A stretch of 32,000 nt of DNA, taken from the NCBI RefSeq assembly GCF_964030745.1, contig NZ_OZ034918.1, forward strand, positions 720,001 to 752,000, given 5' to 3'. The first letter of the stretch is position 1, and each line of letters begins with the position of its first letter. The notes under the pieces were generated by a model, which saw only the letters and a list, made by a program, of their open reading frames with translations, did no database searches and was not told the origin of the DNA. Positions 31,598 through 32,000 of this stretch are shown here, in pieces. The position numbers and the translations under genes were made by a program. The stretch comes from Candidatus Saccharimonadota bacterium. GTDB lineage: Bacteria > Bacteroidota > Bacteroidia > Cytophagales > Amoebophilaceae.

Positions 31598-32000
31598 TTA
31601 GGATTGCCCCAAGAAAAGCATTACAAGACTATGGGCAATAGAATAGGGAACAATTTGCAAAATGCGCATGGTTAATCCATTAAAGATTGCAAAAAACTTT
31701 TTTTCTACTGTAATATTATGCTTCAATCGACCGATCCAAGTCATGCGTACTTCTGATCCACAATTTTGTGTGGCGATCAGGTCAAATGGCATAGTTAAAG
31801 CCGATACAGCTATGCCCAATAAAGCGCTTACAACCATGTTGGCGCCTATTCCACTTATATCTTTTGTAAATTCATAAGCTAATATAGATGCAGAGCCACT
31901 TAGTATATTCCTTAAAAGAATGGGGGTCACAATGTCCATAACCCTTTCCTTGCGTTTCATTAAAGGGCCTTTATTGGCAGCAATTTCTTTTGTTTCGCTA
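31598..32000 (-). CDS. mitochondrial-carrier-family (MCF/SLC25)-like protein, C-terminal part only; the ORF runs off the right edge
   Basis: The frame is open to nt 31999 (SETKEIAANKGPL precedes the listed Met). The sequence follows the MCF repeat layout: even helix TPILLRNILSGSASILAYEFTK (P.LLR..P..A..F..YE..K), odd helix VVSALLGIAVSALTMPFDLIATQ (PxD/ExxK/R-like), then EKKFFAIFNGLTMRILQIVPYSIAHSLVM ([DE]Gxxxx[FYW][KR]G-like plus the final helix). Confidence 0.55.
   Translation of the reverse strand, partial: SETKEIAANKGPLMKRKERVMDIVTPILLRNILSGSASILAYEFTKDISGIGANMVVSALLGIAVSALTMPFDLIATQNCGSEVRMTWIGRLKHNITVEKKFFAIFNGLTMRILQIVPYSIAHSLVMLFLGQS

Follow-up and report, generated by a model that had tools for sequence, protein, structure and literature searches.

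[quoted passage not shown] LncP has high sequence homology to eukaryotic MCF proteins, is translocated by the Dot/Icm type IV secretion system (T4SS), and reaches host mitochondria, where it transports ATP unidirectionally (PMC3252375, PMC7542358). The original prediction named LncP as the known bacterial MCF protein, but it does not stand alone: two MCFs of Neorickettsia sennetsu and three of Legionella longbeachae were reported in 2012 (Dolezal et al. 2012, PMC3252375), and a Cardinium gene followed in 2018. Brown et al. [quoted passage not shown] An MCF gene is also listed for 'Cardinium endosymbiont' by Darbani et al. (2018, PMC5977736).

The presence of an MCF gene in Cardinium is already published. 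The available portions of both 2018 reports deal only with its presence and with a suspicion of horizontal gene transfer; they contain no mention of the 252-aa architecture, the degenerate gates, the place upstream of a gene for an NTT nucleotide transporter, the wider Rickettsiales-type family, or the tandem paralogues. Because gene presence is in print, what the present analysis adds is the conserved arrangement of MCF and NTT, the shortness of the protein, the degeneration of its gates, and the breadth of the bacterial clade.

The gene described here is almost certainly orthologous to the published Cardinium gene, and the relatives given for the latter agree with those we found. Like LncP, its product is a bacterially encoded MCF protein of an intracellular bacterium and may affect nucleotide economy, and its weak gates might permit the same unidirectional transport of ATP. 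It is unlike LncP in being far more divergent, in belonging to a different bacterial clade, and in having no known export route.

The partial gene and its family membership

The gene lies at the edge of the window, the whole 32,000-nucleotide stretch of DNA that was analysed, which comes from a Cardinium-type insect symbiont, with its last 133 codons and stop inside (31598..32000, minus strand). The ORF is open through these 133 codons from the window edge to a TAA stop at 31598–31600, so that the C-terminal 53% of the gene falls within the window and the 5' half lies past its edge. The encoded fragment is 95% identical to the relative P0008 and 76–90% identical to Cardinium orthologues. In Cardinium as in other Amoebophilaceae, the full-length orthologues have 252 aa.

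All strings that the original prediction quoted from the ORF are present in the order given, namely ILAYEFTK, PFDLIATQ, EKKFFAIFNG, and RILQIVPYSIAHSLVM in helix 6. Helix 4 (TPILLRNILSGSASILAYEFTK, ending in the string ILAYEFTK; 31862..31927, minus strand) was placed by the alignments, in the register given by the hhalign comparison with canonical carriers, and corresponds to the AlphaFold helix at residues 145–166 of P0008; at the site of substrate contact point II it bears an R-N pair that does not vary within the family. This pair presumably resembles the amino-acid-carrier pattern of the Robinson-Kunji scheme, which is a lead to a substrate and not a conclusion about one. Helix 5 (31766..31852, minus strand), aligned to canonical PFD/PYD..IKT, ends in MPFDLIATQ and is followed by an invariant NCG; as had been claimed, its PFDLIATQ signature (31772–31789, minus strand) sits at the Px[DE]xx[KR] site with Ala in place of the base. 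The loop string EKKFFAIFNG (31676..31705, minus strand) aligns to canonical 'EGVLSMYKG', in agreement with its proposed position as a degenerate [DE]Gxxxx[FYW][KR]G motif in repeat 3. Helix 6 (LTMRILQIVPYSIAHSLVMLFLG; 31607..31675, minus strand), delimited by translation, alignments, and AlphaFold, has neither a cytoplasmic-gate motif nor a C-terminal tail, and its R and Q do not vary within the Amoebophilaceae family and are mostly retained in the wider family.

Several lines of evidence make it very probable that the gene is a divergent MCF homologue. The 133-aa fragment alone matched Pfam Mito_carr (PF00153) with 24.9 bits (E 1.7e-5; gathering cut-off 22.3 bits), and the model was matched by all nine aligned sequences (seven full-length orthologues and two partial ones, the window fragment included; best E 1.5e-10) and by five of the six Rickettsiales-type relatives tested (24.7–40.9 bits), the sixth, P0027, giving no match. 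A family profile aligned by hhalign to canonical three-repeat carriers with 97.8% probability over 226 collinear columns (E 8.5e-13). In the orthologues, this alignment runs collinearly through all three repeats of canonical carriers, and Pfam recognises two Mito_carr stretches, repeats 1 and 3. The AlphaFold model of P0008 (pLDDT 85.6, pTM 0.82) has six long helices, and in a Foldseek comparison with the PDB its best seven matches were all UCP1 or ADP/ATP carriers (AAC) at TM 0.50–0.67, with matches below these at TM 0.30 or lower. This predicted model thus has the six-helix barrel fold of the solved carriers. The claim of MCF membership is upheld by the Pfam match, the profile-profile alignment, and the exclusively MCF best seven structures, and the full-length relatives show the six helices and the repeat matches whose absence would have counted against it.

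Sequence comparison with the PDB was too insensitive to serve here, so fold comparison was needed: neither the fragment (by phmmer) nor profiles A2 and A3 of the family produced a significant carrier match, and the only hits were weak, one being a SEA-domain protein and the other an MTCH2-UCP1 chimera (E 0.66). Comparisons between the three repeat sub-alignments by hhalign were not significant (E 0.04–0.3), and none of the NCBIfam models matched the family proteins, which NCBI labels 'hypothetical'.

Short architecture and degenerate gates

At about 252 aa, the protein is some 50 aa shorter than typical carriers of about 300 aa. It comprises six helices with neither terminus extended, the chain ending inside helix 6, and repeat 2 of the short MCFs lacks its matrix helix; in the orthologues this repeat is shortened by ~20 aa and has lost its Pro. 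In the orthologue alignments the Px[DE]xx[KR]x[KR] signature was not found on every odd helix. Helix 1 reads P-A-Q-F-V-K, with Gln where an acid is expected; helix 3 lacks Pro and has an ambiguous register, with E113 or E121 as the acid and Thr or Glu at the base position; and helix 5 reads P-F-D-L-I-A, with Ala where a base is expected. We take the Gln of the family to lie at the site of the canonical helix-1 'Q-brace'. Only one of three matrix salt bridges could form, between the Asp of helix 5 and the Lys of helix 1. Nor was the [FY][DE]xx[KR] cytoplasmic motif found on every even helix: it occurs on helix 4 only (YEFTK), while helix 2 ends in SQWLF and helix 6 in SLVMLF. On the aligned sequences, the gating salt-bridge motifs are largely lost. 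An Arg on helix 2 is retained within the Amoebophilaceae clade, and basic residues are concentrated on one side of the membrane, with a mean K+R of 14.2 in the matrix-equivalent loops versus 2.2 opposite.

Compared with SLC25 carriers, the family therefore presents a mixed picture. It shares with them a predicted six-helix barrel (TM 0.60–0.67 to 8hbv, 6gci, and 8g8w), the collinear three-repeat alignment, Pro kinks on helices 1 and 5, and the even-helix G motifs in repeats 1 and 3. It differs in the repeat 2 that lacks its matrix helix and Pro, in the single matrix salt bridge and one isolated cytoplasmic motif, in Pfam scores three to five times lower (24–41 bits for short MCFs versus 84–190 for canonical carriers), and in being encoded by a bacterial genome.

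The dN/dS ratio is 0.06–0.13 for the window fragment against its orthologues and 0.06–0.15 overall, and length is conserved across more than 25 lineages. By these measures the gene is functional and under strong purifying selection, and it is conserved in Cardinium as well as in other Amoebophilaceae. A first homologue search with the fragment found one protein only (P0001); the family was revealed by full-length sequences recovered from genome contigs. A profile search of 1.84 billion representatives then returned ~40 clusters of short bacterial MCFs of 240–273 aa and four canonical carriers at marginal E values (2.5e-7 to 4e-4); among these hits, themselves unnamed as proteins, no LncP-like protein was identified. 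Relatives with organism names all belong to Rickettsiales (Rickettsiales bacterium, Ca. Xenohaliotis, Ca. Xenolissoclinum, and Anaplasmataceae AB001_6), and those assignable to family level are Anaplasmataceae. A search with the Rickettsiales-type alignment A5 gave five proteins only, none with new names.

The window gene belongs to a distinct clade of short (240–273 aa) bacterial MCFs common to Amoebophilaceae and Rickettsiales. The named Rickettsiales proteins listed above fall into this clade by profile search and have P-x-Q-F/Y-x-K, E-T, E-I-x-x-N-K, R-N, and P-F/L-D...C-G as motifs in common with the window family; their identity to it looks low in the alignment. The original prediction of a horizontally acquired eukaryote-like carrier fared less well: no close eukaryotic donor was found, and a neighbour-joining tree nests the Amoebophilaceae clade within Rickettsiales-type sequences. 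A recent transfer from a eukaryote to Cardinium is unsupported by this nesting and by the ~40 bacterial clusters against four marginal canonical carriers. The clade may instead have spread between intracellular bacteria as a lineage native to bacterial cytoplasmic membranes, with its NTT module and its tandem pairs, a reading that we hold tentatively and a little short of evenly balanced. That the MCF arose in bacteria before there were mitochondria is much less likely than such a native lineage, and we consider it very improbable.

Gene neighbourhoods and the nucleotide transporter

The neighbouring gene encodes an NTT/TLC nucleotide transporter of 517 aa (29700..31253, minus strand). It matches PF03219 in full (E 5.2e-133, profile positions 7–491 of 491), scores 360 bits against TIGR00769, under the 387-bit cut-off, and matches 'ADP,ATP carrier protein 1' in the PDB (E 2e-73). 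Four NTT paralogues have been described in Cardinium (PMC3486910). The predicted adjacency of the two genes on the same strand is real and conserved across Amoebophilaceae, with a spacer of 344 nt in the window (31254..31597) when counted from the first possible NTT start codon, TTG at 31253. In 10 of the 11 informative Amoebophilaceae-type loci the MCF gene is directly upstream of and co-oriented with NTT, and NTT orthologues directly follow it in L001-L003, L005-L008, L016, and L017. Analysis of inverted repeats and of relatives' spacer lengths indicated that the window spacer, compared with gaps of 17–152 nt in relatives, owes its greater length to a MITE-like repeat of ~270 nt, nested and palindromic, at about 31290–31590, a second copy of which lies at about 11690–11935. 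The spacer also contains a terminator-like hairpin (31409–31395, minus strand). A promoter scan of the spacer found none, and an Rfam scan of 28000–32000 gave no matches.

Neither L018 nor any of the Rickettsiales-type loci examined showed NTT linkage, so functional coupling to NTT is not obligatory. Anaplasmataceae have lost NTT altogether (PMC9352585), and short MCFs occur in these NTT-less bacteria, indicating that the carrier does not need NTT. The Rickettsiales short MCFs, which unlike those of Amoebophilaceae never adjoin NTT, often form tandem paralogue pairs (L009, L012, L015). It is plausible that the MCF and NTT genes make up a putative host energy-parasitism locus.

The MCF-NTT pair lies beside the cell-division genes ftsA/ftsZ/ftsW, and in Rickettsiales-type loci the MCF gene is found amid housekeeping genes, including hemE and ribosomal genes; in L010 and L011 yajC is upstream and an ABC ATPase follows 8 nt downstream. 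Genes of another kind occur at L013, where an ankyrin-repeat protein and an IpgD-like phosphatase flank the MCF gene, in the window, which carries a homologue of this phosphatase at a distance of 3.3 kb, and at L014, where virB10/virB11/virD4 are 1.8 kb away. We rejected the IpgD-like gene as a regular neighbour because tblastn found it in L013 and the window only, and not in L002-L008.

Possible roles of the short carriers

Our best guess, which we consider evenly poised between right and wrong, is that the symbiont keeps the protein in its own membrane as a carrier and co-expresses it with NTT. It would most likely lie in the cytoplasmic membrane, its N- and C-termini facing outwards and its three 'matrix' loops, rich in K and R, facing the bacterial cytoplasm. 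The solute it carries would be a metabolite from the host, probably an anion, and in Amoebophilaceae the adjacent nucleotide transporter would be co-expressed with it. Since a single matrix salt bridge out of three can form and the cytoplasmic network is incomplete, we expect transport over a low barrier, either uniport-like or loosely coupled, and not strict antiport. The basic matrix-equivalent loops are consistent with the bacterial positive-inside rule, but carriers of the mitochondrial inner membrane have the same bias, which cannot therefore separate the two locations. A resident carrier is suggested by the NTT linkage in 10 of 11 loci, the proximity of ftsA/ftsZ/ftsW, the housekeeping context in Rickettsiales-type loci, and the lack of any N- or C-terminal extension that might hold a secretion signal. 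The occurrence of the family in two phyla, which use different secretion systems, speaks for residence as well. Evidence against residence comes from the effector-type genes near L013 and in the window, the virB10/virB11/virD4 genes near L014, and the MITE-like insertion with its terminator-like hairpin between MCF and NTT in the window; moreover, LncP, which alone among bacterial MCFs has been characterised, acts as a secreted effector (PMC3252375).

That precedent, a T4SS-translocated carrier with unidirectional ATP transport (PMC3252375, PMC7542358), underlies the strongest alternative, which we regard as unlikely though worth serious attention: the symbiont would export the protein, which would enter the inner membrane of host mitochondria and there let nucleotides or some other metabolite leak, or be exchanged, into the host cytosol for uptake by the bacterial NTT. 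Mitochondria are the native home of the MCF fold, a leak or uniport role is compatible with the degenerate gates, and co-expression with NTT would give a coherent release-and-capture pair; the ankyrin-repeat and IpgD-like neighbours at L013, the phosphatase homologue in the window, and the virB/virD4 genes near L014 point the same way. However, the protein ends inside helix 6 and has no terminal extension for a secretion signal, and we know of no precedent for a contractile injection system delivering a six-helix hydrophobic protein. An exported family would also have to use unrelated machineries in two phyla, a T4SS in Rickettsiales and Sec together with a phage-tail-like system in Cardinium (PMC12342168). 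The gene is found mostly amid housekeeping genes and beside the cell-division cluster, and its tandem paralogue pairs and ABC ATPase/yajC adjacency resemble those of resident membrane-transport genes.

A degenerate, non-transporting MCF protein, acting as an insertase, scramblase, or scaffold in a bacterial or host membrane by analogy with MTCH2 and SLC25A46, seems improbable. The loss of most gate residues and of the repeat 2 matrix helix, the low Pfam scores relative to canonical carriers, and the MTCH2-UCP1 chimera, which shares PFDL...NCG and is the best carrier match among PDB sequences, are as such a protein would have them, but the chimera match lacks significance. Residues facing the cavity at contact positions are kept (R-N on helix 4, R and Q on helix 6, Arg on helix 2), and such conservation of polar and charged residues is expected of a transporter; the operon-like linkage to NTT or an ABC ATPase likewise suggests transport. 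Chance resemblance of an unrelated six-helix membrane protein, or a decaying pseudogene, might be read into the degenerate motifs, the internal repeats below hhalign detection, the lack of significant MCF matches in PDB sequence searches (phmmer, profiles), and the 'hypothetical' name with no NCBIfam match, but is ruled out by Pfam scores above cut-off in every Amoebophilaceae sequence and five of six Rickettsiales-type relatives tested, the collinear hhalign alignment over three repeats, structural matches to MCFs exclusively, the low dN/dS, and the conserved length.

The gene is a conserved, selected core gene in a widespread group of arthropod reproductive manipulators. An effector role would make its product, independently of LncP, the second example of a carrier placed by bacteria in host mitochondria. 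If it is instead resident in the symbiont membrane, the carrier fold would extend beyond organelles, and the protein would represent a new transporter class in the nutrient-scavenging toolkit of obligate symbionts. Should the clade prove to be a native bacterial-membrane lineage, working as a two-gene module with NTT in Amoebophilaceae and as tandem pairs in NTT-less Anaplasmataceae, its members would be the first non-effector MCFs working outside an organelle.

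A short mitochondrial carrier gene

[quoted passage not shown] The motif strings listed in the original prediction (ILAYEFTK, PFDLIATQ, EKKFFAIFNG and RILQIVPYSIAHSLVM) were all found in the order claimed, and the nucleotide transporter (NTT) gene it placed downstream on the same strand is a full-length TLC/NTT gene (29700-31253, minus strand; PF03219, E 5e-133) at a distance of 344 nt. The fragment by itself matched the Pfam Mito_carr profile with 24.9 bits (E 1.7e-5; curated cut-off 22.3 bits). The MCF-like reading frame beside the NTT gene is thus real, and chance does not account for the pattern.

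A protein database search with the fragment returned one close relative, P0001; its reading frame is likewise cut off by the end of a 1.6-kb metagenome contig, and an NTT gene comes next. Scanning genomes that represent their species yielded seven loci, six from Cardinium genomes and one from an Amoebophilaceae MAG, all with an open reading frame of 251-252 codons, and a profile search brought in 26 proteins of the family, each about 250 aa long, labelled ‘hypothetical protein’ by NCBI, the named ones all from Cardinium or Amoebophilaceae. The window fragment shares 95% identity with the full-length orthologue P0008 and, as DNA, about 86% with the gene of the Cardinium of Oedothorax gibbosus. 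Comparison of the window NTT and FtsW with their counterparts in named Cardinium genomes gave identities of 74-90%, which assigns the window to a Cardinium-type symbiont.

Each of the nine sequences in the alignment, seven of them full-length orthologues and two partial, matched Mito_carr (best E 1.5e-10), mostly in two stretches corresponding to repeats 1 and 3, and the family profile aligned with a small canonical three-repeat carrier profile over 226 columns, collinear across the three repeats (97.8% probability, E 8.5e-13). An AlphaFold model of P0008 built from the family alignment (pLDDT 85.6, pTM 0.82) has six long helices, and its top seven Foldseek matches in the PDB were human UCP1 and ADP/ATP carriers (TM 0.50-0.67 versus 0.30 or less below them). 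Searches of the PDB by sequence alone, with the fragment and the family profiles, found no carrier, and comparison of the three repeats with one another detected no mutual similarity, their divergence being too great. The protein is a genuine, very divergent MCF member. Pairwise dN/dS was 0.06-0.15, whether the window fragment was compared with eight orthologues or full-length Cardinium genes with one another, indicating that the gene is functional and under purifying selection; together with the Mito_carr matches and the MCF-only top folds, this excludes a chance resemblance or a pseudogene. Separately, family profile positions 37-73 (VYQETGESY...FFSGAHIYALRQF) weakly matched ten SEA-domain-like stretches in P0056, a giant protein of 3717 aa, and the mouse SEA domain of PDB 1ivz, a similarity that probably reflects composition or chance and no relation to the carrier fold.

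Genomic neighbourhood in the Amoebophilaceae

In the Amoebophilaceae the MCF gene is conserved next to NTT. It lies directly upstream of a co-oriented NTT gene in the window and in loci L001, L002, L003, L005, L006, L007, L008 and L016 from related genomes and metagenomes; in L017 NTT likewise follows on the same strand, after a tandem MCF paralogue. L018 is the sole exception, and L004 is too short for the call. Gaps between the two genes are 17-152 nt in relatives, and the window spacer reaches 344 nt because it contains a nested palindromic, MITE-like repeat of about 270 nt. Two copies of this repeat, with perfect 20-nt arms (GCCCCCACCCCTTACAGATG), stand in opposite orientations at about 31290-31590 and 11690-11935; both are intergenic, and the copy in the spacer carries a terminator-like hairpin on the coding strand. 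The repeat was absent from L001-L008 and had no Rfam match.

Cell-division genes accompany the pair: on the upstream side these are ftsA/ftsZ (L016 and L017), and on the downstream side ftsW (the four Cardinium loci L002, L003, L005 and L006). In other Cardinium genomes ftsW follows NTT by 0.1-1.6 kb; in the window it lies past an insertion comprising an IS element, with a DDE transposase (DDE_Tnp_1 and DUF772; 28398-29432, minus strand), and a gene (26452-28266, plus strand) for a 604-aa protein whose C-terminal part is IpgD/SopB-like, of the CX5R phosphatase type (CKSGKDRTG; PF05925, E 5.7e-7), a candidate secreted phosphoinositide phosphatase. In L002-L008 the surroundings of the MCF gene contained no IpgD-like phosphatase. 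Further mobile elements add to the load in the window: an IS-type integrase (rve/HTH; 1330-2418, plus strand) and an AAA-ATPase_like protein with a PD-(D/E)XK domain (PDDEXK_9; 3122-4885, plus strand). Two paralogous minus-strand reading frames of 1155 and 1183 aa (6600-10067 and 15062-18613) show an unusual transporter-hydrolase architecture, an N-terminal sodium:solute symporter (PF00474) fused to a C-terminal HD_4/HD phosphohydrolase.

Relatives in the Rickettsiales

Of 1.84 billion representative proteins searched with the family profile, 47 matched, about 40 of them 240-273 aa long with the same motifs and only four of them canonical three-repeat carriers, at marginal E values (2.5e-7 to 4e-4). 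Named members outside the Amoebophilaceae were all Rickettsiales (a Rickettsia-like organism, Ca. Xenohaliotis californiensis, Ca. Xenolissoclinum pacificiensis and Anaplasmataceae bacterium AB001_6). This agrees with Brown et al. 2018, who list the Cardinium gene as a horizontal-transfer candidate whose nearest match is in Neorickettsia, followed by eukaryotic SCaMC-1 (PMC6232779). Rickettsiales-type loci have housekeeping contexts in which NTT is absent. Tandem paralogue pairs occur in three of six (L009, 6001-7487; L012, 6001-7579; L015, 4256-5753) and in one deep Amoebophilaceae-type locus (L017, 4001-6011), echoing the two MCFs reported for Neorickettsia sennetsu; such paralogues may have different substrates or act jointly. 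In one Rickettsiales-type lineage (L010, 5551-7451; L011, 1042-2942) the gene has yajC upstream and, beginning 8 nt past the MCF stop, the gene of a 217-aa ABC-transporter ATPase downstream, an operon-like pairing of carrier and ATPase. NTT was lost in the ancestor shared by the Anaplasmataceae (PMC9352585), which have the carrier all the same; the carrier therefore does not depend on NTT.

In a neighbour-joining tree, a simple method that left deep nodes unresolved, the Amoebophilaceae sequences grouped as a single clade (bootstrap support 100 of 100, or 97 of 100 with P0027, a Rickettsiales-type relative). With the four canonical carriers as the root, this clade was nested among sequences of the Rickettsiales type. 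This pattern points to a probable transfer between intracellular bacteria, not recent host capture. The original interpretation is thus partly supported: an MCF homologue is borne out by Pfam, profile alignment and fold, and a recent acquisition from a eukaryotic host finds no support in the tree.

The prediction had also named Legionella LncP as the known bacterial example, which is too narrow: Dolezal et al. 2012 describe, in addition to LncP, three carriers from L. longbeachae and two from N. sennetsu (PMC3252375). Darbani et al. 2018 include ‘Cardinium endosymbiont’ in a list of seven bacteria that have SLC25 members (PMC5977736). Given these earlier reports, the existence of the Cardinium MCF gene is already known. 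Our literature search found no functional study of Cardinium or Rickettsiales-type MCF proteins, no mention of the carrier in the available parts of a 2025 Cardinium review and the cEper1 transcriptome paper, and no description of how the gene is conserved ahead of NTT, of its short architecture and degenerate gates, of the tandem paralogues or of the size of the bacterial clade.

Reduced architecture and probable location

The protein is about 50 residues below typical carrier length, mainly because repeat 2 is reduced: helix 3 is continuous without a proline kink, a short KRKE-rich loop runs directly into helix 4, and both the alignments and the model lack a matrix helix and a [DE]G...G motif there. 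Against the consensus Px[DE]xx[KR], helix 1 reads P-A-Q-F-V-K (Gln in place of the acid), helix 3 has lost the Pro and is ambiguous in register, and helix 5 reads P-F-D-L-I-A (Ala in place of the base), so that only one of the three canonical matrix salt bridges, between the helix 5 Asp and the helix 1 Lys, is possible under either helix 3 register. Of the even helices, helix 4 alone keeps the cytoplasmic motif [FY][DE]xx[KR] (YEFTK). Weak gates are associated, in a published model of carrier kinetics, with uniport and not with strict exchange. Mid-membrane contact positions are conserved: the helix 4 R-N pair is invariant, the helix 6 R and Q are invariant in the Amoebophilaceae family and kept in most Rickettsiales-type relatives, and the helix 2 Arg is retained in the Amoebophilaceae clade. 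These conserved basic residues of the cavity suggest an anionic substrate.

We favour a resident carrier that would act in the symbiont's own membrane, a reading to which we give about even confidence. In two phyla whose secretion systems are unrelated, members of the family are found amid genes for housekeeping and transport; the protein lacks any terminal extension in which a secretion signal could lie, and the gene's arrangement is that of an operon partner to a bacterial transporter. Its charge distribution is likewise that of a bacterial inner-membrane protein: the three matrix-equivalent loops carry a mean of 14.2 K+R against 2.2 on the opposite side, which fits the positive-inside rule with both termini outside, although the same bias is equally expected of a true mitochondrial carrier and does not separate the two locations. 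An effector resembling LncP, which is secreted, is a less probable but serious alternative; besides that precedent, it draws on the metagenome locus L013, where an ankyrin-repeat gene lies upstream of the short-MCF gene and an IpgD-like phosphatase gene (1928-3691; 40% identity to that of the window, E 5e-106) 26 nt downstream, and on L014, where the gene is near virB/virD4 genes. That the protein is a degenerate carrier with a non-transport role we consider improbable.
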